A stretch of 41,621 bases of DNA from a virus (Duplodnaviria; Heunggongvirae; Uroviricota; Caudoviricetes): IMG/VR virus record IMGVR_UViG_644736364_000004; one strand, given 5' to 3'. Position numbers and translations under genes: made by a program. This document shows positions 1-33,036 of the stretch, piece by piece (the first letter of the stretch is position 1; every line of letters starts with the position of its first letter). The notes beneath the pieces are model-generated. The model saw nothing but the letters and a program-made list of their open reading frames with translations. It did not search any database and was not told where the DNA came from.

Positions 1-1143
1 CTATGCTGTTTTGATATCTACGATAATCCAGTCTTTACCACGATCATCATTGTATCGGTCGGTCATTTTTCTGGATTTATGGCCTAACAACTTTTGCGTA
101 TCCAGACCCTGTTCCCGATATAACCGTTCTGACAGAGATCGCTGCTCATGAAATGTGGGCGCAGTTCCTTGCTCCCATTTTATGCCACATTTTTCCCGGG
201 CCTTTTTAAAAGCCGTTGTCAGAGTATTCGCAGAAACCTGGTCTCCTCTGTTTGCTTGAGAGGTAGTGTGACGGTAATGGACCAGATATTTACTAACAAC
301 AGCATCCCTGCACTGAGATATAACTTCACGAAGGGTAATATTCAGAGCATCGCATTTCAGGTTAAGCGGAATAGCAAGTTTTGAACCGGTTTTTTCCTGA
401 GTAATGTGCAACATGTCGTCCCATATATCAGAGAATTTCAAATTGCAGATATCGCCTAAACGTTGTCCAGTAACAAGAGCAAGTAGCATGCCGCATTTTA
501 AATAGGGCTGCCGTCTGCTTACGCTGTCAAATATTGCCTGCCATTCGGGCAGTGACAATCTTTGGCGGTTTACTCGATTTCGTGGTTGTTTTGTTGCCTG
601 CGCTGGGTTAAATCCTGGCGGAACATGTCCTGCGTGTTGTGCTTCTTTGAAGACGTCGATCAACACCATTCTCACGACTTGCGCCATCCTGTTATGACCT
701 TCAGCCTTTACAGCATCAATTATTTCGGCAATATCAAGTGCGGTAATATCCTTGAGGTGTTGCATTCCACAATGCTCACGGAAAAGACGAATGGGTTTGC
801 CTTTTTGCCGATAGGAGTTGGGTCTTAGTTCATTATGTTGCAGCCTGTCCTCTTGGATAGAAATATATTTATCAAGCCATTCTGTCACCGTAATGTCTGA
901 GCGCCTGCCTTTCATTCTTTCCAGACGCTCATTGACGCTTAATATTTGTCTGGTACGTTGTTCAGCAATAATGGTATTTGCTTCAGTAGCAACTTGTTTT
1001 GCTTCATTCTCATCAGTTCCTAAGCTATGAAAACGACCGGATAGTGGATGTTTGTATTGCCAATATACCTTTCCGGTTCGCTTATCTAATTTGCAATATA
1101 AATTGGGTATAGAGATTTTGTGAGATCGGGGTCTAGCAGCCAT
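1..1143 (-). CDS. int: Tyrosine integrase (lambda Int family), 380 aa, complete; stop codon is at window positions 1-3
   Basis: ORF track; C-terminal catalytic region (…LGHKSRKMTDRY…) typical of tyrosine recombinases; terminal position next to an xis-like gene. Confidence 0.9.
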   Translation of the reverse strand: MAARPRSHKISIPNLYCKLDKRTGKVYWQYKHPLSGRFHSLGTDENEAKQVATEANTIIAEQRTRQILSVNERLERMKGRRSDITVTEWLDKYISIQEDRLQHNELRPNSYRQKGKPIRLFREHCGMQHLKDITALDIAEIIDAVKAEGHNRMAQVVRMVLIDVFKEAQHAGHVPPGFNPAQATKQPRNRVNRQRLSLPEWQAIFDSVSRRQPYLKCGMLLALVTGQRLGDICNLKFSDIWDDMLHITQEKTGSKLAIPLNLKCDALNITLREVISQCRDAVVSKYLVHYRHTTSQANRGDQVSANTLTTAFKKAREKCGIKWEQGTAPTFHEQRSLSERLYREQGLDTQKLLGHKSRKMTDRYNDDRGKDWIIVDIKTA

Positions 1144-1369
1144 CAGCGATTATCCTTTGGAGTTTTGGGTTTGCGTTTATTGGGAGTTGCGGTTCTGCAA
1201 GCGTTCCTACAAAACGGGAATTTCGGTCAATCATCCAGTAGCGACCAACTTTTATAGCGGGTGGGGCCATCATTTTCCCTTGCGCGTATTTTTTCAGAAC
1301 TCGCTCACTTGGTGCTAAGTCCCCAAATTCTTCTTTAGCCCAGTCCTGTAAAGTGATTAGTCGAGACAT
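1133..1369 (-). CDS. xis: Excisionase-like small DNA-binding protein, 78 aa
   Basis: Immediately upstream of int and overlapping its start by 11 nt; strong SD (AGAGGAGGACAA) before the ATG; size and position typical of Xis. The protein itself is not lambda Xis. Confidence 0.55.
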   Translation of the reverse strand: MSRLITLQDWAKEEFGDLAPSERVLKKYAQGKMMAPPAIKVGRYWMIDRNSRFVGTLAEPQLPINANPKLQRIIADGC

Positions 1370-1508
1370 TTGTCCTCCTCTTAGCTGCTGAGGGAGTTTG
1401 TGACCGATATATCTGACATGATATTAAGCTCATGGCAGGTACATCTCTTGACTGGTCATAGAGATAAATTTAATGCTGAGAAATGCAGTATTGAATTTAT
1501 CAATTTTT

Positions 1509-1748
1509 CTATTTCCTGCGCATGTCACGTAACTTCTTAATGTGTTCTGCCGTTTCGATCTCTTCTGCTATCCGATCTGCATCAGCTTTATTCACAGGTT
1601 CAAAGTCATGATTAAAGCGGAACATGCTGGCGATACATGTTCTGCCTTTTCGGATGTAGTGAACTTTGTTGTGGGTAGAACGCAGGATTTTGCAGGGAGT
1701 GCCGTGGTGGTCGACGTACCAGGTGTTAGGGTCAATCACTCTGAACAT
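1509..1748 (-). CDS. Hypothetical protein, 79 aa
   Basis: ORF track; co-oriented with the leftward early operon; no family recognised. Confidence 0.4.
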   Translation of the reverse strand: MFRVIDPNTWYVDHHGTPCKILRSTHNKVHYIRKGRTCIASMFRFNHDFEPVNKADADRIAEEIETAEHIKKLRDMRRK

Positions 1749-2061
1749 TCTTGACCTTGTGTTGTGCGGATTGATATTCAGTGCTGATATTCACCTTTAT
1801 AGCGAACACCTTTACCGGTTTATCGCCAAAGTGCGGATGTGTGATTGTCTTCACTTCATATCCGTCATACGGAACATCAATTCTGCGACTGGAATCGTCG
1901 CGCTTCGGATATCCCTTTGTGATAATCAGGCGGTCATATTCCCGGAACATAATTCGCTTATTCCAGTAGTCATTACACAAGCGATACTCTTCCGTTTTCT
2001 CTCCGCGAATCATGGCATCGAAGTATTCACTTTTAACAGCAAGTTGCAGGTTAGCCATCAC
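1732..2061 (-). CDS. Hypothetical protein, 109 aa, possible ASCH/PUA-like fold
   Basis: ORF track; N-terminus (LAVKSEYFDAMIRGEKTEEYR) resembles the start of ASCH-domain proteins. Weak, by-eye assignment. Confidence 0.4.
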   Translation of the reverse strand: MMANLQLAVKSEYFDAMIRGEKTEEYRLCNDYWNKRIMFREYDRLIITKGYPKRDDSSRRIDVPYDGYEVKTITHPHFGDKPVKVFAIKVNISTEYQSAQHKVKNVQSD

Positions 2062-2279
2062 TTAATCCCCCTTTGTTTGCGGATAAGCTCCAGATCTTGC
2101 TGGCAACTGGCGCAAGTCCGACAACCCTGAACGGCCAGGCGTCTTCGTTCATCTATCGGATCGCCACACTCACAACAATGAGTGGCAGATACAGCCAGGT
2201 AGTTCAGGCGGCGCATTTTTATTGCTGTGTTGCGCTGTAATTCTTCTATTTCTGATGCTGAATCAATGATGTCTGCCAT
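2058..2279 (-). CDS. TraR/DksA-family C4-type zinc-finger protein, 73 aa
   Basis: Two CxxC pairs (HCCECGD … CRTCASCQ) in a small prophage protein, a common early-region accessory gene. Confidence 0.6.
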   Translation of the reverse strand: MADIIDSASEIEELQRNTAIKMRRLNYLAVSATHCCECGDPIDERRRLAVQGCRTCASCQQDLELIRKQRGIK

Positions 2280-2330
2280 CTTTCATTAATCCCTGAACTG
2301 TTGGTTAATACGCTTGAGGGTGAATGCGAA

Positions 2331-2357
2331 CAATAAAAAAGGAGCCTGTAGCTCCCT
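2331..2357 (-). terminator. Rho-independent terminator candidate on the leftward transcript
   Basis: On the minus strand, hairpin GGAGC-TACAG-GCTCC (plus 2341-2355) followed by TTTTTTATTG. Confidence 0.45.
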
Positions 2358-2472
2358 GATAATTTTGCTTTTCATGTTCATCGTTCCTTAAAGACGCCGT
2401 TTAACATGCCGATTGCCAGGCTTAAATGAGTCGGTGTGAATCCCTTCAGCGTTACCGTTTCGCGGTGCTTCT

Positions 2473-2655
2473 TCAGTACGCTACGGCAAATGTCATTGAC
2501 GTTTTTGGAAACTGCTGTCTGACTTTTTTGATTTCAGAATTAGCCTGACGGGCAATGCTGCGAAGGGCGTTTTCTTGCTGAGGTGTCACTGAACAAGCCC
2601 CATGTCGGCAAGCATAAGCACACAGAATATGAAGCCCGCTGCCAGAAAAATGCAT
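2473..2655 (-). CDS. Small hypothetical protein, 60 aa
   Basis: ORF track with ATG start; position equivalent to the small orf61/orf63 genes left of exo in lambda. Weak. Confidence 0.3.
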   Translation of the reverse strand: MHFSGSGLHILCAYACRHGACSVTPQQENALRSIARQANSEIKKVRQQFPKTSMTFAVAY

Positions 2656-2665
2656 TCAGTGGTTG

Positions 2666-2857
2666 TCATACCTGGTCTCTCTCATCTGCTTCTGCTTTCG
2701 CCACCATCATTTCCAGCTTTTGTGAAAGGGATGTGGCTAACGTATGAAATTCTTCGTCTGTTTCTGCTGGTATTGGCACAAACCTGACTCCAATTTGAGC
2801 AAGGCTATGTGCCAAATCAATACTCGTTCTTAACTCAACAGGAGATGCTTTGTGCAT
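2666..2857 (-). CDS. Small early protein, 63 aa (lambda orf63-like)
   Basis: Size and position left of exo match lambda orf63; sequence identity is from recall only. Confidence 0.45.
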   Translation of the reverse strand: MHKASPVELRTSIDLAHSLAQIGVRFVPIPAETDEEFHTLATSLSQKLEMMVAKAEADERDQV

Positions 2858-3018
2858 ACCGCCCCCCGTTTATTATTTATCTCCTCAGCCAGCCGCTGGG
2901 CTTTCAGCGGATTTCGGATAACAGAAAGACCGTGAAATACCCAGCCTCGCTTTGTAACGGAGTAGACGAAAGTGATCGCGCCTACCCGGATATTATCGTG
3001 AGGATGGGTCATCGCCAT
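2830..3018 (-). CDS. Small early protein, 62 aa (lambda orf60a-like)
   Basis: Directly downstream of exo in the same orientation, as orf60a is in lambda. Confidence 0.45.
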
Positions 3019-3689
3019 TGCTCTCCAAATACAAAACCAATTTCAGCCAGTGCTTCGTCCATTTTTTCGATGAACTCCGGCACCATCTCGTCAAAACTCG
3101 CCATGTACTTTTCATCCCGCTCAACCACGACATAATGCAGGCCTTCACGCTTCATTCGTGGGTCATAGTTGGCAAAGTACCAGGCATCTTTTCGTGTCAC
3201 CCACATGCTGTACTGCACCTGGGCCATGTAAGCCGACTTTATGGCCTCGAAACCACCGAGCCGGAACTTCATGAAATCCCGGGAGGTAAACGGGCATTTC
3301 AGCTCAAGGCCATTGCCGTCACTGCATAAACCATCGGGAGAGCAGGCGGTGCGCATACTTTCGTCGCGATAGATGATCGGGGATTCAGTAACATTCACGC
3401 CGGAAGTGAATTCAAACAGGGTTCTGGCGTCGTTCTCGTACTGTTTTCCCCACGCCAGCGCCTTAGCATTAACTTCCGGAGCCACACCGGTGCAAACCTC
3501 AGCCAGCAGGGTGTGGAAGTAGGACATTTTCATGTCAGGCCACTTCTTTCCTGAGCGGGGCTTTGCTATCACGTTGTGAACTTCTGAAGCGGTGATGACG
3601 CCGAGCCGTAATTTGTGCCATGCATCATCCCCCTGTTCGACAGCTCTCACGTCGATCCCGGTACGCTGCAGGATAATGTCCGGTGTCAT
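3009..3689 (-). CDS. exo: Lambda exonuclease (Red-alpha), 226 aa
   Basis: Translation [50 protein letters not shown]… is essentially the lambda Exo sequence as I recall it. Confidence 0.95.
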
Positions 3690-4471
3690 GCTGCCACCTT
3701 CTGCTCAGTGGCTTTCTGTTTCAGGAATCCAAGAGCTTTCACTGCTTCGGCCTGTGTCAGTTCTGACGATGCGCGAATGTCGCGGCGAAATATCTGGGAA
3801 CAGAGCGGCAATAAGTCGTCATCCCATGTTTTGTCCAGGGCAATCAGCAGAGTGTTAATCTCCTGCATGGTTTCATCGTTAACCGGAGTGATGTCGCGTT
3901 CCGGCTGACGTTCTGCAGTGTATGCGGTATTTTCGACAATGCGCTCGGCTTCATCCTTGTCATAGATACCAGCAAATCCGAAGGCCAGACGGGCACACTG
4001 AATCATGGCTTTATGCCGTAACATCCGTTTGGGATGCGACTGCCACGGCCCCGTGATTTCTCTGCCTTCGCGGGTTTTGAATGGTTCGCGGCGGCATTCA
4101 TCCATCCACTCGGTAACGCAGATCGGATGATTGCGGTCTTTGCGGTAAATCCGGCATGTACATGATTCATTGTCCTGCTCAAAGTCCATACCATCAAACT
4201 GCTGGTTTTCATTGATGATGCGGGACCAGCCATCAACGCCCACCACCGGAACAATGCCGTTCTGCTTATCAGGGAAGGCGTAAATTTCTTTCGTCCACGG
4301 ATTAAGGCCGTACTGGTTGGCGACGATCAACAATGCGATGAACTGCGCATCGCTGGCATCACCTTTAAATGCCGTCTGGCGAAGAGTGGTGATCAGTTCC
4401 TGTGGGTCGACAGAATCCATGCCGACACGTTCAGCCAGCTTCCCTGCCAGCGTTGCGAGTGCTGTACTCAT
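3686..4471 (-). CDS. bet: Bet single-strand annealing protein (Red-beta), 261 aa
   Basis: Translation [59 protein letters not shown]… matches lambda Bet; start overlaps the exo start region (ATGA-type junction). Confidence 0.95.
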
Positions 4472-4476
4472 CCGTT

Positions 4477-4773
4477 TTATACCTCTGAATCAATATCAGC
4501 CTGATGGTGAGCAATGGTTTCAACTATGTACCGGATGTGTTCTGCCATGCGCTCCTGAAACTCAACATCGTCATCAAACGCACGGGTAATGGCTTTTTTG
4601 CTGGCCCCGTGGCGTTGTAAATGATCGATGCATAGCGATTCAAACAGGTGCTGGGGCAGGCCTTTTTCCATGTCGTCTGCCAGTTCTGCCTCTTTCTCTT
4701 CACGGGCGATCTGCTGGTAGTGACGCGCCCAGCTCTGAGCCTCAAGACGATCCTGAATGTAATAAGCGTTCAT
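4477..4773 (-). CDS. gam: Gam (RecBCD inhibitor), 98-aa short form
   Basis: Translation [44 protein letters not shown]… matches lambda GamS. Confidence 0.9.
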
Positions 4774-4848
4774 GGCTGAACTCCTGAAAATGGCTGTGAA
4801 AATATCGCCCGCGAAATGCCAGGCTGATTAGGAAAACAGGAAAGGGGG

Positions 4849-4992
4849 TTAGTGAATGCTTTTGCTTGATCTCAGTTTCAGTATTAATATCCATTTTTTA
4901 TAAGCGTCGACGGCCTCACGAAACATCTTTTCATCGCCAATAAAAGTGGCGATAGTGAATTTAGTCTGGATAGCCATAATTGTTTGATCCAT
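4849..4992 (-). CDS. kil: Kil (host cell-division inhibitor), 47 aa
   Basis: In-frame ATG at 4992 gives [47 protein letters not shown], matching lambda Kil; the track ORF 4849-5118 is an upstream extension of this frame. Confidence 0.7.
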
Positions 4993-5125
4993 TTTTTGGG
5001 ACTCCTGGCTGATTAAGTATGTCGATAAGGCGTTTCCATCCGTCACGTAATTTACGGGTGATTCGTTCAAGTAAAGATTCGGAAGGGCAGCCAGCAACAG
5101 GCCACCCTGCAATGGCATATTGCAT
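4961..5125 (-). CDS. cIII: CIII (FtsH inhibitor that stabilises CII), 54 aa
   Basis: Hand translation of the minus strand from the ATG at 5125: [54 protein letters not shown], stop TAA at 4961-4963. Too short for the ORF track; overlaps kil as in lambda. Confidence 0.7.
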   Translation of the reverse strand: MQYAIAGWPVAGCPSESLLERITRKLRDGWKRLIDILNQPGVPKNGSNNYGYPD

Positions 5126-5197
5126 GGTGTGCTCCTTATTTATACATAACGAAAAACGCCTCGAGTGAAGCGTAATTGGTATGCGGTAACGCCGCGC

Positions 5198-5566
5198 TCA
5201 GGCGGCCTTGATAGTCATATCATCTGAATCAAATATTCCTGATGTATCGATATCGGTAATTCTTATTCCTTCACTACCATCCATTGGAGGCCATCCTTCC
5301 TGACCATTTCCATCATTCCAGTCGAACTCACACACAACACCATATGCATTTAAGTCGCTTGAAATTGCTATAAGCAGAGCATGTTGCGCCAGCATGATTA
5401 ATACAGCATTTAATACAGAGCCGTGTTTATTGAGTCGGTATTCAGAGTCTGACCAGAAATTATTAATCTGGTGAAGTTTTTCCTCTGTCATTACGTCATG
5501 GTCAATTTCAATTTCTATTGATGCTTTCCAGTCGTAATCAATGATGTATTTTTTGATGTTTGACAT
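5198..5566 (-). CDS. ea10: Ea10-like early protein, 122 aa
   Basis: Position between cIII and ral and length match lambda ea10. Confidence 0.6.
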   Translation of the reverse strand: MSNIKKYIIDYDWKASIEIEIDHDVMTEEKLHQINNFWSDSEYRLNKHGSVLNAVLIMLAQHALLIAISSDLNAYGVVCEFDWNDGNGQEGWPPMDGSEGIRITDIDTSGIFDSDDMTIKAA

Positions 5567-5748
5567 CTATTCATATCCTCATAGATAAAAAATCGCCCTC
5601 ACACTGGAGGGCAAAGAAGATTTCCAATAATCAGAACAAGTCGGCTCCTGTTTAGTTACGAGCGACATTGCTCCGTGTATTCACTCGTTGGAATGAATAC
5701 ACAGTGCAGTGTTTATTCTGTTATTTATGCCAAAAATAAAGGCCACTA

Positions 5749-6760: not shown

Positions 6761-7033
6761 TCATCTCGCCGTCAGTTGTTTTGATTTCCGGTAGCCTGCC
6801 GCGTAAAGAGCTACGTTCGGAAGACAAGTTGAACCTTCATATTTTCTGGTCAACGTTGTCAGAGTTATCACTTCTGCTCTCATTGCTGGTTTGAGCTTGC
6901 ATTGCAAGACCACTCGTGAAGGGGTTGGCCTGTGTAGCTTGTCGGAGCTGATCGCCTCCTGACTTTGCAGATTTGCGCGACGAGCTCTACGGCGAGAAGC
7001 TGCGGTGCCTTTAAATTCTGTTTTTCTGGACAT
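6761..7033 (-). CDS. N: N-like transcription antiterminator, 90 aa
   Basis: Start at the in-frame ATG at 7033, preceded by GGGAGG with 5-nt spacing; N-terminal arginine-rich motif (GTAASRRRARRANLQ) of the N family; sits between pL/nutL and the early genes. Not lambda N itself. Confidence 0.65.
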   Translation of the reverse strand: MSRKTEFKGTAASRRRARRANLQSQEAISSDKLHRPTPSRVVLQCKLKPAMRAEVITLTTLTRKYEGSTCLPNVALYAAGYRKSKQLTAR

Positions 7034-7131
7034 GGATTCCTCCCGAATAAACTTTGGCGATGCAATCTCGAAGCTCCTCCTGAGACGGTTGCTTCGGCAT
7101 TGCATCCCACAGCTTATGTGGTTGGGTGATC

Positions 7132-7469: not shown

Positions 7470-8222
7470 TTATGCTGCAAGTCTCTTAACCCAAGTCTCT
7501 CTTTTGGAGAATGGTAGAACTTGGCTTGATTCATGGAAGAGTAAGGAGAGTTGTTGCATTTGATCACCAATTGCTTCGCTGTCTATAACAACAAATCTGT
7601 TGTTATACTCCTCACTTGAAGCTTTAAGATCAATTAGTTTCCCAAGCAATGAGTAAGCACTATTCCAGCTTCCTCCGTGTTTCACGCTTGATGTAAAAAC
7701 GTATTTAGGTATGTCGGTTTTTATTGTTACAGGGACGGTAATTTGATGTCCACTCAAGCCATATACGTTTTCACGAAGAGAAAGTGCGTCTCTAAGCTCT
7801 GTGTGATATAGATAATCAATAACCATACTTTCAAACTTTTCAGCTTGAACTGGCTGATACCAGTCTAACGACAAAGTTGATGCGAGTATACCAGCTCTAA
7901 TTATGTTCGATGTAATCGCACCGACATCCTTTTCTGTTGCCCAAGCAATGATTTCTCCTCGAGCATTGAGTTCTGCGCCTTCTTTAAGCAGTAATTGTCG
8001 TATCTCATCAAGTCGTTTTTTGGTAAGCGAGATCCCTCTTGCCTCCATATTCATTAAGGCATCGCATCTGTCACTAACTAAATACCTACCATTGACTTCA
8101 CGGATAAAGGCACCGACATGCTCTCCATCATCACAGTAAGTGAATGGACTGATAATTCTCAAGGTCTTGCCTATTGGATGGCATTCGAAACCTAGTTGTG
8201 AGATCACTGTTGAGCACATCAT
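7470..8222 (-). CDS. Uncharacterised protein, 250 aa; distal gene of the cassette downstream of cI (rexB-equivalent position)
   Basis: ATGATG start whose first codon overlaps the TGA of the upstream 185-codon ORF; followed by a terminator; AT-rich by inspection; no transmembrane segments and no family recognised. Confidence 0.65.
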   Translation of the reverse strand: MMCSTVISQLGFECHPIGKTLRIISPFTYCDDGEHVGAFIREVNGRYLVSDRCDALMNMEARGISLTKKRLDEIRQLLLKEGAELNARGEIIAWATEKDVGAITSNIIRAGILASTLSLDWYQPVQAEKFESMVIDYLYHTELRDALSLRENVYGLSGHQITVPVTIKTDIPKYVFTSSVKHGGSWNSAYSLLGKLIDLKASSEEYNNRFVVIDSEAIGDQMQQLSLLFHESSQVLPFSKRETWVKRLAA

Positions 8223-8776
8223 ATTCCAAACCCCATTTGCCCCGACTCATCTTCAAGCGGTAAAGGTATTCTCCCAGAGTAAGTTATGTTCAGATGTTTA
8301 CAGAAGTAATTCCAATACCCTACCAGGTCATCTGGGTTTATGTCATCTTCGATTGGAAACGCTATTCTATCACTATAGTATCCAGCTTCTTCATAGTATA
8401 CATGGTAGTGAGCACCGTAAATGATATCTTGGTACTTCGGATGATCGACCTTGTAACTATTCGTGTGTTTGTCAAAGTGATAGGTATCTACCGCGAAAAC
8501 CCTCTTGTTATGATAGAAAGCAATAATATTTATTTTAGGGTAAGAAATCGGGTCATCAGGTTCTGAATCCTGATCTGGTTTCCATTTCAGTTCAAACTTT
8601 AGCCCTTGTATAGGTATACAATCCTCATCCAAGGGGATGATATGGGCTTGTAGCCACATATCAGAGCGACTTGGTTTCTGTTTCCATTTAACGCCAGAAA
8701 AGTTAACTATTTTTTTACAATAAAGTACTTTATCAACTTCTACTTGGCTTGGCTGATAATCATCTATTTTTGCCAA
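8219..8776 (-). CDS. Uncharacterised protein, 185 aa; proximal gene of the cassette downstream of cI (rexA-equivalent position)
   Basis: ORF starts at a TTG directly after an in-frame stop, 39 nt downstream of the cI stop; His/Tyr/Asp-rich; no family recognised. The start codon is uncertain. Confidence 0.55.
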   Translation of the reverse strand: MAKIDDYQPSQVEVDKVLYCKKIVNFSGVKWKQKPSRSDMWLQAHIIPLDEDCIPIQGLKFELKWKPDQDSEPDDPISYPKINIIAFYHNKRVFAVDTYHFDKHTNSYKVDHPKYQDIIYGAHYHVYYEEAGYYSDRIAFPIEDDINPDDLVGYWNYFCKHLNITYSGRIPLPLEDESGQMGFGI

Positions 8777-17881: not shown

Positions 17882-18175
17882 TTATTGTGAGCAATACACA
17901 CGCGCTTCCAGCGGAGTATAAATGCCTAAAGTAATAAAACCGAGCAATCCATTTACGAATGTTTGCTGGGTTTCTGTTTTAACAACATTTTCTGCACCAC
18001 CACAAATTTTTGCTGCATCGACAGTTTTCTTCTGCCCAATTCCCGAAACGAAGAAATGATGGGTGATGGTTTCCTTTGGTGTTACTGCTGTAGGTTTGTT
18101 TCCAACAGTAAACGTCTGTTGAGCACATCCTGTAATAAGCATTGCCAGAGCGGCAGAAAACAACATTTTTTTCAT
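17882..18175 (-). CDS. bor: Bor lipoprotein (serum-resistance type), 97 aa
   Basis: From the ATG at 18175: MKKMLFSAALAMLITGCAQQTFTVGNKPTAVTPKETITHHFF… matches lambda Bor; lipobox LITGC. Confidence 0.85.
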   Translation of the reverse strand: MKKMLFSAALAMLITGCAQQTFTVGNKPTAVTPKETITHHFFVSGIGQKKTVDAAKICGGAENVVKTETQQTFVNGLLGFITLGIYTPLEARVYCSQ

Positions 18176-18655
18176 CTTATTATCCTGCATTGTTAAAAAC
18201 GGCAGAATCCTATGTGACAACAATTAAACGATAGTTAAATGGATTGATGAAAATTAAAACTACACAGGTGGGCTCAGACTATTGGAGGAAGTTGGGGACA
18301 CTCAGAATCCTGTGGAATGAAATAAACCGGTCTATCCGTCCATTACCCTTTTAGCTGCGCTGTATCGTCGCCGTATTCCCGCATTAACCATGACCGTAGC
18401 CCGACGGGGAATTCCTTCTGCGTGAGTGTGCGGGAATAATTAAAAACGATGCACACCGGGTTTTTACCGCGTTAATGATTCGCGGGTTTATCCCGGTGCG
18501 ATGGTGGAAGAAACAGGAAGCTGTATTACAGAAAGTGCTACTACTGTATCCCGATGCGATGTATGTAATGTGAGTCAGATAATGGCACAGGATGTGGTGA
18601 TGTGGCAGTCTGGAACACAGGATATATTGTCAGAATAAGACCCGTAGGAATAAAA

Positions 18656-27177: not shown

Positions 27178-27552
27178 ATGGCAACGAAAGAGCAAAATCT
27201 GAAACGGCTTGATGAACTGGCCCTGATTCTGGGGCGTGAGCCGGATATATCCGGGAGTGCCGCAGAGATAGCGCAGCGGGTGGCAGAATGGGAAGAGGAA
27301 ATGCAGTCATCCGGCGATGATGTACAGGTTATGAATATGGATATCCGGGAGCGTGAAACCGCGGCTCATGATGTTCGTGAGGAAACATCCGGCGCGTTAA
27401 CGCGCATCAGAGTTCTGACCTGCCTCCATCTCTGTGGCGTTGATGGTGAAACGGGGGAATCCGTTGAGCTTGCGGATGTTGGTCGGGTGATTCTGATTAT
27501 GTCCTCAGATGCAAAAACACACGTTGATGGTGGAATGGCTGTTTATGCGTGA
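27178..27552 (+). CDS. FI: FI-like DNA-packaging accessory protein
   Basis: Position between E and FII; ATG at 27178; acidic central region. Diverged from lambda FI. Confidence 0.7.
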   Translation: MATKEQNLKRLDELALILGREPDISGSAAEIAQRVAEWEEEMQSSGDDVQVMNMDIRERETAAHDVREETSGALTRIRVLTCLHLCGVDGETGESVELADVGRVILIMSSDAKTHVDGGMAVYA

Positions 27553-27898
27553 TTTTCAGAATGCCTTTGATGCCGCCCTTGCCGGGGTGGACAGTACGAT
27601 TGTTGAAGTGATGGGCATCAGTGCGCAGTTCACCTCCGGTGCACAGCGTGGCGGCGAGGTTTATGGCGTTTTTGACGATCCGGAGTCGCTGGGTTTTGCC
27701 AGTAGTGGGATCCGTATTGAAGGAAGTAACCCGTCATTATTTGTGCTTACGGATACGGTTTGTGCTGTACGGCGTGGTGACACGCTGACCATTAACGGCG
27801 AGATGTTCTGGGTGGACCGTGTTTCTCCGGATGACGGAGGGAGTTGTTATCTCTGGCTCAACCGGGGGCAACCACCTGCCGCCAGCCGTCGTCGCTGA
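27545..27898 (+). CDS. FII: Head completion protein FII
   Basis: From the ATG at 27545: MRDFQNAFDAALAGVD … GVFDDPES … FWVDRVSPDDGGSCYLWL aligns with lambda FII. Confidence 0.8.
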   Translation: MRDFQNAFDAALAGVDSTIVEVMGISAQFTSGAQRGGEVYGVFDDPESLGFASSGIRIEGSNPSLFVLTDTVCAVRRGDTLTINGEMFWVDRVSPDDGGSCYLWLNRGQPPAASRRR

Positions 27899-27909
27899 AA
27901 GGGGGATGT

Positions 27910-28488
27910 ATGGCCATACAGGGTCTTGAGCAGGCCGTTGAAAACCTCAGCCGTATCAGCAAAACGGCGGTGCCCGGTGCCTCCGCAATGGCCATTAACC
28001 GCGTTGCTTCATCCGCGATATCGCAGTCTGCGTCACAGGTTGCCCGTGAGACAAAGGTACGCCGGAAACTGGTAAAGGAAAGGACCAGGCTGAAAAGGGC
28101 CACGGTCAAAAATCCGCAGGCCAGAATCAAGGTTAACCGGGGGGATTTGCCCGTAATCAGGCTGGGTAACGCGCGGGTTGTCCTGTCCCGACGCAGGCGT
28201 CGTAAAAAGGGGCAGCGTTCATCCCTGAAAGGTGGCGACAGCGTGCTTGTGGTGGGAAACCGTCGTATTCCCGGCGCGTTTATTCAGCAACTGAAAAATG
28301 GCCGCTGGCATGTCATGCAGCGTGTGGCCGGGAAAAACCGTTACCCCATTGATGTGGTGAAAATCCCGATGGCAGTGCCGCTGACCACGGCGTTTAAACA
28401 GAATATTGAGCGGATACGGCGTGAACGTCTTCCGAAAGAGCTGGGCTATGCGCTGCAGCATCAACTGAGAATGGTAATAAAGCGATGA
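27910..28488 (+). CDS. Z: Tail completion protein Z
   Basis: ATG at 27910 with a GGGGG SD; length and position match lambda Z. Confidence 0.8.
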   Translation: MAIQGLEQAVENLSRISKTAVPGASAMAINRVASSAISQSASQVARETKVRRKLVKERTRLKRATVKNPQARIKVNRGDLPVIRLGNARVVLSRRRRRKKGQRSSLKGGDSVLVVGNRRIPGAFIQQLKNGRWHVMQRVAGKNRYPIDVVKIPMAVPLTTAFKQNIERIRRERLPKELGYALQHQLRMVIKR

Positions 28489-28880
28489 AACATACTGAAC
28501 TCCGAGCAGCCGTACTGGATGCACTGGAGAAGCATGACACCGGGGCGACGCTTTTTGATGGTCGCCCCGCTGTTTTTGATGAGGAAGATTTTCCGGCAAT
28601 TGCCGTTTATCTCACCAGCGCTGAATACACGGGCGAAGAGCTGGACAGCGATACCTGGCAGGCGGAGCTGCATATTGAAGTTTTCCTGCCTGCTCAGGTG
28701 CCGGATTCAGAGCTGGATTCGTGGATGGAGTCCCGGATTTATCCGGTGATGAGCGATATCCCGGCACTGTCAGATTTGATCACCAGTATGGTGGCCAGTG
28801 GCTATGACTACCGACGCGACGATGATGCGGGCCTGTGGAGTTCAGCCGATCTGACTTATGTCATTACCTATGAAATGTGA
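28485..28880 (+). CDS. U: Tail terminator protein U, 131 aa
   Basis: Length identical to lambda U; ATGA-type overlap with the Z stop. Confidence 0.85.
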
Positions 28881-28887
28881 GGACGCT

Positions 28888-29628
28888 ATGCCTGTACCAA
28901 ATCCTACAATGCCGGTGAAAGGTGCCGGGACCACACTGTGGGTTTATAAGGGGAACGGTGACCCTTATGCGAACCCGCTTTCAGACGTTGACTGGTCGCG
29001 TCTGGCAAAAGTTAAAGACCTGACGCCCGGCGAACTGACCGCTGAGTCCTATGACGACAGCTATCTCGATGATGAAGATGCGGACTGGACTGCGACCGGG
29101 CAGGGGCAGAAATCAGCCGGAGATACCAGCTTCACGCTGGCGTGGATGCCCGGAGAGCAGGGGCAGCAGGCGCTGCTGGCGTGGTTTAATGAAGGTGATA
29201 CCCGTGCCTATAAAATCCGCTTCCCGAACGGCACGGTCGATGTGTTCCGTGGCTGGGTCAGCAGTATCGGTAAAGCGGTGACGGCGAAGGAAGTGATCAC
29301 CCGCACGGTGAAGGTCACCAATGTGGGACGCCCGTCGATGGCTGAAGATCGCAGTACGGTGACGGCAGCAACCGGCATGACGGTAACGCCAGCCAGTGCT
29401 TCCGTAGTGAAAGGGCAGAGCACCACGCTGACCGTGGCATTCCAGCCGGAAGGTGTAACCGACAAGAGCTTCCGTGCGGTGTCTGCGGATAAAACAAAAG
29501 CCACCGTGTCGGTCAGTGGTATGACCATCACCGTGAACGGCGTTGCTGCAGGCAAGGTCAACATTCCGGTTGTATCCGGTAATGGTGAGTTTGCTGCGGT
29601 TGCAGAAATCACCGTCACCGCCAGTTAA
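28888..29628 (+). CDS. V: Major tail tube protein V, 246 aa
   Basis: From the ATG at 28888: [22 protein letters not shown]… matches lambda V, including the C-terminal Ig-like region. Confidence 0.9.
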
Positions 29629-29643
29629 TCCGGAGAGTCAGCG

Positions 29644-30066
29644 ATGTTCCTGAAAACAGAATCATTTGAACATAACGGCGTGACCGTCACGCTTTCTGAA
29701 CTGTCAGCCCTGCAGCGTATTGAGCATCTCGCCCTGATGAAACGGCAGGCAGAACAGGCGGAGTCAGACAGCAACCGGAAGTTTACTGTGGAAGACGCCA
29801 TCAGAACCGGTGCTTTTGTGGTGGCGATGTCCCTGTGGCATAACCATCCGCAGAAGACAAAGCTGCCTTCCATGAATGAAGCCGTTAAACAGATTGAGCA
29901 GGAAGTGCTTACCACCTGGCCTACAGAGGCAATTTCTCATGCTGAAAACGTGGTGTACCGGCTGTCCGGTATGTATGAGTTTGTGGTGAATGATGCCCCT
30001 GAACAGGCAGAGGACGCCGGGTCTGCAGAGCCTGTTTCTGCGGGAAAGTGTTCGACGGTGAGCTGA
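29644..30066 (+). CDS. G: Tail assembly chaperone G, 140 aa
   Basis: MFLKTESFEHNGVTVTLSELSALQRIEHLALMKRQAEQAESD… matches lambda G; ends …AGKCSTVS. Confidence 0.85.
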   Translation: MFLKTESFEHNGVTVTLSELSALQRIEHLALMKRQAEQAESDSNRKFTVEDAIRTGAFVVAMSLWHNHPQKTKLPSMNEAVKQIEQEVLTTWPTEAISHAENVVYRLSGMYEFVVNDAPEQAEDAGSAEPVSAGKCSTVS

Positions 30067-30482
30067 GTTTTGCCCTGAAACTGGCGCGTGAGATGGGGCG
30101 ACCTGACTGGCGCGCCATGCTTGCCGGGATGTCATCCACAGAGTATGCCGACTGGCACCGCTTTTACAGTACCCATTATTTTCATGATGTTCTGCTGGAT
30201 ATGCACTTTTCCGGGCTGACGTACACCGTGCTCAGCCTGTTTTTCAGCGATCCGGATATGCATCCGCTGGATTTCAGTCTGCTGAACCGGCGTGAGGCTG
30301 ACGAAGAGCCTGAAGATGATGTGCTGATGCAGAAAGCGGCAGGGCTTGCCGGAGGCGTCCGCTTTGCCCCGGACGGAAATGAAGTTATCCCCGCTTCCCC
30401 GGATATGGCGGGCATGACGGAGGATGACGTAATGCTGATGACAGTATCAGAAGGGATCGCAGGAGGAGTCCGGTATGGCTGA
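29644..30482 (+). CDS. GT: G-T fusion tail assembly chaperone, made by -1 frameshift at 30042-30048
   Basis: The T-frame ORF has no independent start with an RBS and overlaps the G 3' end in the -1 frame, as in lambda. Confidence 0.75.
30042..30048 (+). other. Programmed -1 ribosomal frameshift slippery heptamer GGGAAAG (G to G-T)
   Basis: G GGA AAG sits in the G frame 18 nt before the G stop; the -1 frame continues open into the T ORF (30048-30482). Confidence 0.8.
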
Positions 30483-33036
30483 ACCGGTAGGCGATCTGGT
30501 CGTTGATTTAAGTCTGGATGCGGCCAGATTTGACGAGCAGATGGCCAGAGTCAGGCGTCATTTTTCCGGTACGGAAAGTGATGCGAAAAAAACAGCGGCA
30601 GTCGTTGAACAGTCGCTGAGCCGACAGGCGCTGGCTGCACAGAAAGCGGGGATTTCCGTCGGGCAGTATAAAGCCGCCATGCGTATGCTGCCTGCACAGT
30701 TCACCGACGTGGCCACGCAGCTTGCAGGCGGGCAAAGTCCGTGGCTGATCCTGCTGCAACAGGGGGGGCAGGTGAAGGACTCCTTCGGCGGGATGATCCC
30801 CATGTTCAGGGGGCTTGCCGGTGCGATCACCCTGCCGATGGTGGGGGCCACCTCGCTGGCGGTGGCGACCGGTGCGCTGGCGTATGCCTGGTATCAGGGC
30901 AACTCAACCCTGTCCGATTTCAACAAAACGCTGGTCCTTTCCGGCAATCAGGCGGGACTGACGGCAGATCGTATGCTGGTCCTGTCCAGAGCCGGGCAGG
31001 CGGCAGGGCTGACGTTTAACCAGACCAGCGAGTCACTCAGCGCACTGGTTAAGGCGGGAGTAAGCGGTGAGGCTCAGATTGCATCCATCAGCCAGAGTGT
31101 GGCGCGTTTCTCCTCTGCATCCGGCGTGGAGGTGGACAAGGTCGCTGAAGCCTTCGGGAAGCTGACCACTGACCCGACGTCGGGGCTGACGGCGATGGCG
31201 CGCCAGTTCCATAACGTAACGGCGGAGCAGATTGCGTATGTTGCTCAGTTGCAGCGTTCCGGCGATGAATCCGGGGCATTGCAGGCGGCGAACGAGGCCG
31301 CAACGAAAGGGTTTGATGACCAGACCCGACGCCTGAAAGAGAACATGGGCACGCTGGAAACCTGGGCAGACAGGACAGCACGGGCATTCAAATCCATGTG
31401 GGATGCGGTGCTGGATATTGGTCGTCCTGATACCGCTCAGGAGATGCTGATTAAGGCAGAGGCTGCGTTTAAGAAAGCGGACGACATCTGGAATCTGCGC
31501 AAGGATGATTATTTTGTTAACGATGAAGCGCGGGCGCGTTACTGGGATGATCGTGAAAAGGCCCGTCTTGCGCTTGAAGCCGCCCGAAAGAAGGCTGAAC
31601 AGCAGAGTCAACAGGACAAAAATGCGCAGCAGCAGAGCGATACCGAAGCATCACGGCTGAAATATACCGAAGAGGCGCAGAAGGCTTACGAACGGCTGCA
31701 GACACCGCTGGAGAAATATACCGCCCGTCAGGAAGAACTGAACAAGGCACTGAAAGACGGGAAAATCCTGCAGGCAGATTACAACACGCTGATGGCGGCG
31801 GCGAAAAAGGATTATGAAGCGACGCTGAAAAAGCCGAAACAGTCCGGCGTGAAGGTGTCTGCGGGCGATCGTCAGGAAGACAGTGCTCATGCTGCCCTGC
31901 TGACGCTTCAGGCTGAACTCCGGACGCTGGAGAAGCATGCCGGAGCAAATGAGAAAATCAGCCAGCAGCGCCGGGATTTGTGGAAGGCGGAGAGTCAGTT
32001 CGCGGTACTGGAGGAGGCGGCGCAACGTCGCCAGCTGTCTGCACAGGAGAAATCCCTGCTGGCGCATAAAGATGAGACGCTGGAGTACAAACGCCAGCTG
32101 GCTGCACTTGGCGACAAGGTTACGTATCAGGAGCGCCTGAACGCGCTGGCGCAGCAGGCGGATAAATTCGCACAGCAGCAACGGGCAAAACGGGCCGCTA
32201 TTGATGCGAAAAGCCGGGGGCTGACTGACCGGCAGGCAGAACGGGAAGCCACGGAACAGCGCCTGAAGGAACAGTATGGCGATAATCCTCTGGCGCTGAA
32301 TAACGTCATGTCAGAGCAGAAAAAGACCTGGGCGGCTGAAGACCTGCTTCGCGGGAACTGGATGGCAGGCCTGAAGTCCGGCTGGAGTGAGTGGGAAGAG
32401 AGTGCCACGGACAGTATGTCGCAGGTTAAAAGTGCTGCCACGCAGACCTTTGATGGTATTGCGCAGAATATGGCGGCGATGCTGACCGGCAGTGAACAGA
32501 ACTGGCGCAGCTTCACCCGTTCCGTGCTGTCCATGATGACAGAAATTCTGCTTAAGCAGGCAATGGTGGGGATTGTCGGGAGTATCGGCAGCGCTATTGG
32601 CGGGGCTGTTGGTGGCGGCGCATCCGCGTCAGGCGGTACAGCCATTCAGGCCGCTGCGGCGAAACTCCATTTTGCAACCGGAGGATTTACGGGAACCGGC
32701 GGCAAATATGAGCCAGCGGGGATTGTTCACCGTGGTGAATTTGTCTTCACGAAGGAGGCAACCAGCCGGATTGGCGTGGGAAATCTCTACCGGCTGATGC
32801 GCGGCTATGCCACCGGCGGTTATGTCGGTGGCACCGGAAGTCCGGCGCAAATGCGGCGTTCAGAGGGTATCAGGTTTGAGCAGAACAACAACGTGGTGAT
32901 TCAGAACGACGGTACGAATGGTCTGCCAGGTCCACAGATGATGAAGGCGGTGTATGACATGGCCCGCAAGGGTGCCCGTGATGAAATCCAGGCACAGATG
33001 CGCGATGGTGGTCTGTTCTCCGGAGGTGGACGATGA
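30475..33036 (+). CDS. H: Tail tape measure protein H, 853 aa
   Basis: MAEPVGDLVVDLSLDAARFDEQMARVRRHF… nearly identical to lambda gpH as recalled, and the same length. Confidence 0.9.
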   Translation: MAEPVGDLVVDLSLDAARFDEQMARVRRHFSGTESDAKKTAAVVEQSLSRQALAAQKAGISVGQYKAAMRMLPAQFTDVATQLAGGQSPWLILLQQGGQVKDSFGGMIPMFRGLAGAITLPMVGATSLAVATGALAYAWYQGNSTLSDFNKTLVLSGNQAGLTADRMLVLSRAGQAAGLTFNQTSESLSALVKAGVSGEAQIASISQSVARFSSASGVEVDKVAEAFGKLTTDPTSGLTAMARQFHNVTAEQIAYVAQLQRSGDESGALQAANEAATKGFDDQTRRLKENMGTLETWADRTARAFKSMWDAVLDIGRPDTAQEMLIKAEAAFKKADDIWNLRKDDYFVNDEARARYWDDREKARLALEAARKKAEQQSQQDKNAQQQSDTEASRLKYTEEAQKAYERLQTPLEKYTARQEELNKALKDGKILQADYNTLMAAAKKDYEATLKKPKQSGVKVSAGDRQEDSAHAALLTLQAELRTLEKHAGANEKISQQRRDLWKAESQFAVLEEAAQRRQLSAQEKSLLAHKDETLEYKRQLAALGDKVTYQERLNALAQQADKFAQQQRAKRAAIDAKSRGLTDRQAEREATEQRLKEQYGDNPLALNNVMSEQKKTWAAEDLLRGNWMAGLKSGWSEWEESATDSMSQVKSAATQTFDGIAQNMAAMLTGSEQNWRSFTRSVLSMMTEILLKQAMVGIVGSIGSAIGGAVGGGASASGGTAIQAAAAKLHFATGGFTGTGGKYEPAGIVHRGEFVFTKEATSRIGVGNLYRLMRGYATGGYVGGTGSPAQMRRSEGIRFEQNNNVVIQNDGTNGLPGPQMMKAVYDMARKGARDEIQAQMRDGGLFSGGGR

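Follow-up and report, generated by a model that had tools for sequence, protein, structure and literature searches.

In phage lambda, the exo–xis region (orf60a, orf63, orf61, orf2313, orf73, ea22, ea8.5 and orf55) is transcribed from the pL promoter (PMC4195576), and this region has repeatedly been reported, in Shiga toxin (Stx) phages as well, to bias the lysis–lysogeny decision and prophage induction. Its best-understood gene, orf73, was characterized in lambda in 2022. Lambda Orf73 binds RNA polymerase (RNAP) and complements a dksA-null strain (Gopalkrishnan et al. 2022, PMC9239242), and it inhibits, in vitro as well as in vivo, ribosomal RNA (rRNA) and ribosomal protein (r-protein) promoters without guanosine tetraphosphate (ppGpp) (PMC9239242). 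Early in the lytic cycle the gene is expressed from pL, and its product slows host growth and raises the phage yield after induction ~4-fold (PMC9239242). Here, we analyzed positions 1370–3018 of a 41,621-nucleotide stretch of DNA (the window) from the Caudoviricetes record IMGVR_UViG_644736364_000004 of IMG/VR. An earlier note, made from the sequence alone, had described this interval as a non-lambda accessory block between xis and exo with host-takeover or regulatory functions, none of which it assigned confidently.

We conclude, with a probability of about 0.88, that the interval comes from a phage 21-type lambdoid prophage integrated at icd and is the exo–xis segment of its leftward early (pL) operon. 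On the minus strand, the order of transcription is exo, orf60a, orf63, orf61 (truncated by a frameshift), orf2313 with the predicted partial terminator t2 inside it, orf73, a gene for an ASCH-fold protein, a DUF4222 gene, xis and int. The right boundary is formed by the lambda exonuclease gene exo (3009–3689), the product of which shares 223 of 226 residues with lambda Exo and which is followed in the list of open reading frames (ORFs) by bet and gam. The left boundary is xis (1133–1369), encoding a phage 21-type excisionase of 78 amino acids (Pfam Exc, E = 6.7e-6; phrog_629, E = 5.4e-36); the same gene is annotated as an excisionase gene in phage 21, phage ev207 and Escherichia coli ATCC 11775, and it adjoins a gene for an integrase of 380 amino acids (1–1143). 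The definition of the exo–xis region was taken from PMC8614690. On the pL strand, the interval is flanked by exo and xis and contains the conserved orf60a-orf63-orf61-orf73 block, whereas no homologue of ea22, the fifth conserved gene of the region, was found between orf73 and xis of the window. The genes farther upstream also follow the lambda order, in keeping with expression from pL, with N (6761–7105, minus strand), sieB, ral, ea10, cIII and cI, the last of these encoding an S24/helix-turn-helix repressor (8816–9517). A cIII RNA thermometer at 5080–5138 was the only Rfam match at the gathering threshold in the window.

A blastn comparison of window positions 1–5600 with lambda 27500–32100 yielded a single alignment, which starts at window position 2068 and extends with 96% identity to position 3761, this endpoint being the end of the lambda stretch compared. 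The breakpoint at 2068 coincides with the stop codon of orf73. Lambda sequence makes up 58% of the interval, and the non-lambda part consists of just 1370–2067 plus int and xis. The description of the block as foreign to lambda was thus wrong for the TraR-like gene and for everything to the right of it. The three co-oriented minus-strand ORFs of 79, 108 or 109, and 73 amino acids that had been pointed out are present in the ORF list, and each of them has a strong family match, so that none is a chance ORF. Of these three, said to stand where lambda carries ea8.5 and ea22, the ASCH and DUF4222 genes indeed take the place of ea22, ea8.5 and orf55, whereas the TraR-like gene is orf73 of lambda itself. 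That it looked foreign to the earlier reader can be attributed to the RefSeq record of lambda (NC_001416.1), which has no annotation between ea22 and orf61 and therefore omits orf73 and orf2313. Both are present as unannotated ORFs of 73 amino acids (lambda 30392–30613) and 31 amino acids (lambda 30620–30715) and have been described in the literature (PMC9239242; PMC8614690). We regard the correction concerning these two omitted genes as the useful outcome of the comparison. From exo through orf73, the block thus resembles its lambda counterpart at the same position of the pL operon, and this applies also to the 31-codon ORF and to t2, the predicted terminator. It differs from lambda in the genes between orf73 and xis, in the phage 21 type of int and xis, in a degraded t1 hairpin, and in the lesion that truncates orf61.

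The likeness to phage 21 (OL657228, genes CPT_21_36 to CPT_21_42) is more extensive and includes the gene order, the type of int and xis and the attachment locus. Window positions 1–5600 aligned with phage 21 end to end at 97.6% DNA identity. Over positions 1100–3300 the identity was 100% for phage PhiR63_2, 99.9% for ev207 and 97.2% for phage 21, and PhiR63_2 contains the whole 1649-bp interval without a single difference. The Orf73 and ASCH proteins of phage 21 are identical to those of the window and its DUF4222 protein is identical at 70 of 79 residues, with a few substitutions in the C-terminal helix; a further difference is that orf61 is intact and long in phage 21, whereas the window copy has a 4-nt deletion. 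The records of phage 21 and ev207 contain annotations of the same genes. Of 5426 complete E. coli genomes, 738 held 80% or more of the interval, and the best-matching chromosomes, of which 15 were listed, were 100% identical to it. In the E. coli type strain ATCC 11775 the block adjoins icd, and RefSeq annotates all of its genes (as DUF4222, ASCH domain-containing, TraR/DksA family, frameshifted ‘ZapA’, DUF1382 and DUF1317). Hence, the block is a module that has already been sequenced and annotated in phage 21 and its relatives, and since published phages and hundreds of annotated E. coli prophages carry the identical sequence, it has little weight as a discovery.

The gene orf73 (2058–2279) encodes a protein of the TraR family of RNAP secondary-channel regulators, as indicated by Pfam, by TraR structures in the PDB and by orthology to lambda Orf73. 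Its product of 73 amino acids matched Pfam zf-dskA_traR with 36.0 bits (cut-off 24.9, E = 6.7e-9) and phrog_54, ‘DksA-like zinc-finger protein’ (E = 2.5e-25), scored slightly below the cut-off of NCBIfam TIGR02419 (55.1 versus 59.7 bits), and matched the F-plasmid TraR chains 5w1s and 6n57 along its full length (E ~1e-4). It is identical to lambda Orf73 at 66 of 73 positions (90%) and to the phage 21 protein at all 73. The N-terminal acidic DxxDxA motif, which is important for function and reaches the RNAP active site (PMC9239242), is present as D3-I-I-D6-S-A8 and is invariant in lambda Orf73 and F TraR. Cysteines C35, C38, C56 and C59 align with C37, C40, C58 and C61 of the TraR zinc finger (CxxC-17-CxxC), and the invariant pair R46-R47 is equivalent to R48/R49 of TraR. 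Thus the protein shares with F TraR and lambda Orf73 the length of 73 amino acids, the DxxDxA motif, the zinc finger, the arginine pair and a C-terminal helix, whereas its overall identity to F TraR is 32%. Two additional cysteines peculiar to lambda Orf73 also occur in the window protein. The TraR/DksA assignment of the earlier note was therefore borne out by the domain search, whereas its verdict that nothing could be assigned confidently is outdated for this gene, given a 90%-identical lambda orthologue that binds RNAP and raises the phage yield. Since the seven substitutions that separate the two proteins fall outside the TraR motifs, and in view of the 90% identity, the best inference is that the window Orf73 would act by the same mechanism as lambda Orf73, namely by binding RNAP and inhibiting the promoters for rRNA and r-proteins. 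The idea of a host-takeover or regulatory function agrees with the literature on the exo–xis region and on lambda Orf73 (PMC9239242, PMC8614690).

The ASCH gene and the DUF4222 gene each form an independent single-gene cassette, and together they fill a variable slot that holds ea22, ea8.5 and orf55 in lambda. In phage genomes, the DUF4222 segment (1370–1752) and the ASCH segment (1768–2061) were found apart from each other. The former occurred alone in ~20 lambda-like isolates, and the ASCH gene occurred alone in Stx2 phages, in P22-like and Jersey-like Salmonella phages and in one P1-like phage, whereas both cassettes were together in only eight phage records. In phage 4A7, the DUF4222 gene directly follows orf73. 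Among 80 IMG/VR loci with close ASCH homologues (all at least 87% identical), two arrangements dominated. The first was ea22>ASCH>orf55>xis(lambda)>int(lambda), or parts of it, and the second, which is that of the window, was orf73>ASCH>DUF4222>xis21>int21. Unlike in the window, ea22 is a neighbour of the ASCH gene in many of the other loci. These arrangements indicate that the ASCH gene occupies the slot of ea8.5 and the DUF4222 gene that of orf55. Both genes belong to large phage families and would be reasonable, if non-urgent, targets for simple genetics.

The ASCH-fold gene ends at 1732 and encodes 108 amino acids from an ATG at 2058 or 109 from a GTG at 2061. Its start overlaps the stop codon of orf73 (TGATG), and at the 3′ end the gene shares 17 nt with the start of the DUF4222 gene. 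The 108-residue protein matched phrog_625 (‘unknown function’) with E = 2.5e-51, and an exhaustive HMMER search recovered 750 cluster representatives at E ≤ 1e-3. The Pfam ASCH model (PF04266) scored 14.3 bits, below its cut-off of 21.2 (E = 0.068), and it was matched at E < 0.01 by only 6 of 60 diverse homologues. No match was obtained in PDB sequence searches with the single sequence or with a profile of the 60 sequences. ASCH domains have a conserved N-terminal octapeptide, GxKxxExR, which in the window protein reads G19-E-K21-T-E-E24-Y-R26. Lysine 21 is invariant in the 60 homologues (36–76% identity) and G19, E24 and R26 are conserved in at least 90% of them; W32, R35, G49-Y50-P51, H74 and F77 are shared as well. 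A confident AlphaFold2 (AF2) model predicts a PUA-like β-barrel that is nearest to solved ASCH structures. Based on this predicted fold and the motif, we accept the protein as a divergent, minimal member of the ASCH fold, and the guess of the earlier note that it is ASCH-like thus holds for fold and motif, whereas the Pfam score stays below the threshold. The barrel and the octapeptide are shared with the ASCH superfamily (the E. coli N4-acetylcytidine (ac4C) amidohydrolase YqfB, the Zymomonas ribonuclease ZmASCH, PH0355 and the EF ASC-1-like protein 3iuw), from which the protein differs by its subthreshold score and by its own conserved W32, GYP49-51 and THPHF73-77. Typical members of its family have 93–96 amino acids and the minimal domain comprises ~92 residues. 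The window ORF additionally encodes a C-terminal extension of 14 residues (1732–1775) with low predicted local distance difference test (pLDDT) values, which is located at the junction of the two cassettes, overlaps the start of the DUF4222 gene and looks like an artefact of this junction and not like a conserved feature.

The resemblance to YqfB raises the question whether the protein could be an N4-acetylcytidine/N4-acylcytosine amidohydrolase that serves pyrimidine salvage or RNA de-acetylation. The octapeptides of the two proteins are in register, with G19, K21 and R26 of the window protein corresponding to G19, K21 and R26 of YqfB, and two members of the YqfB catalytic set (Lys21, Thr24, Arg26 and Glu74) are thereby present, namely Lys21 and Arg26, whereas no residue could be aligned with Glu74. 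However, the nucleophile Thr24 is replaced by Glu24 in the window protein and in nearly all of its homologues, so that this activity is unlikely. Moreover, an hhalign comparison of the family with YqfB aligned only 17 columns, those of the octapeptide, with a probability of 0.5%, and none of the PDB chains matched the protein in sequence. We therefore consider a YqfB-type amidohydrolase very unlikely, and our best guess is that the ASCH protein may bind nucleic acid or a nucleotide.

The DUF4222 gene (1509–1748) is located beside xis, where lambda has orf55, and encodes a non-lambda protein of 79 amino acids with an isoelectric point of 9.6. The earlier note had listed this ORF as unknown; the domain search places it in DUF4222 (PF13973; 68.5 bits, cut-off 27, E = 3.6e-19, model positions 2–53 of 53), and it also matched phrog_285. 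Homologues were found only in prophages of Enterobacteriaceae and all of those listed were at least 64% identical; likewise, a second, profile-based search revealed none below ~64% identity among the 120 matches listed. The structural model (AF2, pLDDT 86), which because of this narrow range rests on a shallow alignment, predicts a small five-stranded barrel (residues 10–52) followed by a helix of 25 residues, and a PDB sequence search with the protein gave no match. The predicted barrel is similar in fold to the UvrD/PcrA C-terminal domain and to the RNAP-interaction domains of CarD and Mfd. For both cassette genes the analysis thus narrows the predicted fold and not the activity. The sole DUF4222 protein that has been studied is RgdR (ECs1581) from a satellite prophage of enterohaemorrhagic E. 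coli. It activates LEE1 and the type III secretion system (T3SS), represses motility and shows weak, non-specific DNA binding, and its authors proposed a role as a co-factor. We confirmed the Sakai genome copy of RgdR as a DUF4222 protein. Like the window protein, it is a small basic protein encoded by a mobile element, with a basic C-terminal helix after the DUF4222 domain. It differs in its location, which is in a P4-like or phage-inducible chromosomal island (PICI)-like element beside a primase gene and not in a lambdoid pL operon. In an alignment extended upstream by eye, the RGD motif of RgdR (residues 20–22) corresponds to P7-N8-T9 of the window protein. A regulatory role of the DUF4222 protein is plausible, albeit weakly supported.

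One could also regard the two non-lambda ORFs as decaying or non-functional filler of a dispensable region. Consistent with this explanation, the neighbouring orf61 is frameshifted, the b/exo–xis region is dispensable in the laboratory (PMC4195576), and the ASCH copy carries the 14-residue, low-confidence extension from the cassette junction. Such a view is hardly credible in light of the hundreds of homologues, with identities down to 40–50%, the conserved motifs and the intact reading frames of both families and the confident AF2 models for both proteins. Furthermore, the ASCH protein is identical in the window and in phage 21 despite a difference of ~3% in the surrounding DNA.

A terminator-like hairpin with a run of six T residues is present at 2329–2357 (minus strand), inside orf2313, and corresponds to the predicted terminator t2 of lambda and phage phi24B. 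Bloch et al. 2014 (PMC4195576) list the same sequence as t2 of both phages. Lambda, phage 21 and the window have the same stem, loop and T-run, with few differences in the flanking bases, and the hairpin folds at −15.3 kcal/mol (z = −2.1). In lambda, the mRNA levels of orf73, ea22 and ea8.5 are below those of the genes upstream of t2 (PMC4195576). A minus-strand terminator had been proposed here in the earlier note; the exactly conserved hairpin and T-run and the lambda expression data support it, whereas a terminator pattern scan found two sites versus 2.9 expected by chance and was thus not above the background. A promoter, p1, has been predicted that overlaps t2 upstream of orf73 (PMC4195576), and the window carries substitutions in both predicted p1 hexamers.

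Taken together with the order of the genes, an exo–xis segment within the pL operon suggests the following sequence of events. Upon induction or infection, N-modified RNAP starting at pL would read through the terminators and express the whole string of genes. The N-terminal DxxDxA helix of Orf73 would enter the RNAP secondary channel, as described for the lambda orthologue and as expected here from the 90% identity and intact motifs, and inhibition of rRNA and r-protein promoters without ppGpp would then lead to a higher phage yield. Synthesis of the ASCH protein may be translationally coupled to orf73 via the overlapping TGATG, and the protein would act as a minimal PUA-like/ASCH binder of nucleic acid or nucleotide and not as a YqfB-type amidohydrolase. 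The DUF4222 protein, as a member of the RgdR family, would most likely be a low-specificity modulator of host gene expression that associates with nucleic acid or RNAP. A bolder version of this scheme, which we find quite unlikely, combines orf73 and the ASCH and DUF4222 genes in one unit for the takeover of host transcription. There, the Tudor/SH3-like barrel of the DUF4222 protein would dock onto RNAP as do the similarly folded UvrD/PcrA, CarD and Mfd domains, a host RNA or a modified nucleotide would be the ligand of the ASCH protein, and both proteins would extend the ppGpp-independent reprogramming by Orf73. If true, this would assign a biochemical function to the widespread phage families phrog_285 and phrog_625 and explain the pleiotropy of RgdR.

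Some observations weigh against our interpretation of the interval as a pL-expressed regulatory segment. The promoter p1 predicted upstream of orf73 makes expression independent of pL possible, the window Orf73 differs from lambda Orf73 at seven positions, and the DUF4222 protein is only 24% identical to RgdR (over 68 residues) and has no RGD motif. According to a different explanation, the ASCH and DUF4222 genes would be morons for lysogenic conversion that have their own promoter in the repressed prophage, are insulated from pL by t2 and benefit the host, for example through RgdR-like control of virulence or motility genes or through phage defence. RgdR acts from the lysogen, where it switches LEE1 and the T3SS on and reduces motility, a terminator-like hairpin is located upstream of orf73, and the two cassettes move between phages independently of each other. 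In phi24B, moreover, the mRNA of orf73 and ea22 rises independently after H2O2 treatment (Bloch et al., PMC4195576), the same study that predicted the promoter over t2. On the other hand, the genes follow orf73 head to tail on the pL strand, their stop and start codons overlap, and both predicted p1 hexamers are substituted in the window. A scan for sigma-70-like promoters on the minus strand of positions 1000–3800 called no site in the block and none besides one inside int. Likewise, none of the six proteins searched matched a PADLOC defence model, and the missing RGD motif and the low identity to RgdR also count against this explanation. On balance, we regard the moron explanation as unlikely and prefer the interpretation of the interval as an exo–xis segment of the pL operon.

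Between xis and the DUF4222 gene lies a non-coding gap of 139 bp (1370–1508) with 37% GC, which in each of the 27 phage records containing it is at least 99.3% identical. It contains an AT-rich inverted repeat of 16 bp (1463–1501) followed by a T-run on the plus strand. As plus-strand RNA this repeat folds at −21.3 kcal/mol (z = −3.4; none of 200 shuffled sequences folded as well), and as minus-strand RNA at −14.7 kcal/mol (z = −1.8). Because the plus strand folds far better, the repeat looks like the terminator of a transcript antisense to the pL operon. The search for direct and inverted repeats revealed only this palindrome and chance-level pairs, a scan for CII boxes (TTGYN6TTGY), as the mark of a pI-like promoter near xis, found no site in the block (5 in the window versus 9.8 expected), Rfam yielded nothing credible at E ≤ 1 for window positions 1200–3100, and no tRNA was detected by a tRNA scan. 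The prophage type, which is lambda-like with the phage 21 site in icd, fits the published prophage NC-SV of the adherent-invasive E. coli strain NC101 (PMC12803456). NC-SV encodes the small RNA svsR at the 3′ end of cI, which limits infection by other phages (PMC12803456); svsR was considered as a possible occupant of the gap between xis and the DUF4222 gene, but was rejected due to its location at cI.

The small genes to the right of orf73 are close relatives of lambda genes. The 31-codon ORF of the orf2313 type (2286–2381) is identical to its lambda counterpart at 31 of 31 residues, and lambda orf2313 was found by ribosome profiling to be translated (PMC8614690). The genes orf63 (2666–2857; 63 amino acids, DUF1382, Pfam E = 9.1e-29, 56 of 63 residues identical to lambda) and orf60a (2830–3018; 62 amino acids, DUF1317, Pfam E = 8.5e-39, 61 of 62 identical) are present, as the earlier note had suggested, whereas the ORF of 60 amino acids at 2473–2655 is not orf60a and is a truncated allele of orf61. 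Compared with the intact long form in phage 21, this allele is frameshifted by a deletion of 4 nt (GGAT) between positions 2506 and 2507. The matches to phrog_26061 and phrog_303 reach only the N-terminal part of the window orf61 product, and RefSeq treats the identical sequence as a frameshifted ‘ZapA’ pseudogene. The truncation of orf61 in lambda has another cause, namely one additional A in an A-run. The two lesions are independent inactivations of one gene. NCBIfam contained no match for the ASCH, DUF4222, Orf60a, Orf61 and Orf63 proteins.

Within orf60a, positions 2926–2948 (minus strand) correspond to the hairpin t1 of lambda (31265–31287) in a degraded form, in which two substitutions break the stem. 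The terminator scan called t1 in lambda and not in the window, and the window sequence was compared by eye with the t1 of Bloch et al. 2014. One of the two substitutions also changes a proline of Orf60a to histidine. The classical lambda terminator tL3 is located just downstream of exo and would thus probably be equivalent to t1 rather than t2.

Further genes of the window were noted outside the interval. Two overlapping minus-strand genes at 7470–8222 and 8219–8776 encode a protein of 250 amino acids with a DUF1828 domain and one of 185 amino acids with a weak match to DUF6978. They are located between N/pL and cI, at the position of rexB and rexA in lambda, and are a candidate for a prophage-expressed exclusion or defence pair. 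A phage-borne general porin (15009–16151, minus strand; Porin_1, E = 2e-151) and a homologue of the Bor lipoprotein (17882–18223, minus strand) are encoded in the late region in the opposite orientation to the surrounding genes and are typical lysogenic-conversion morons.

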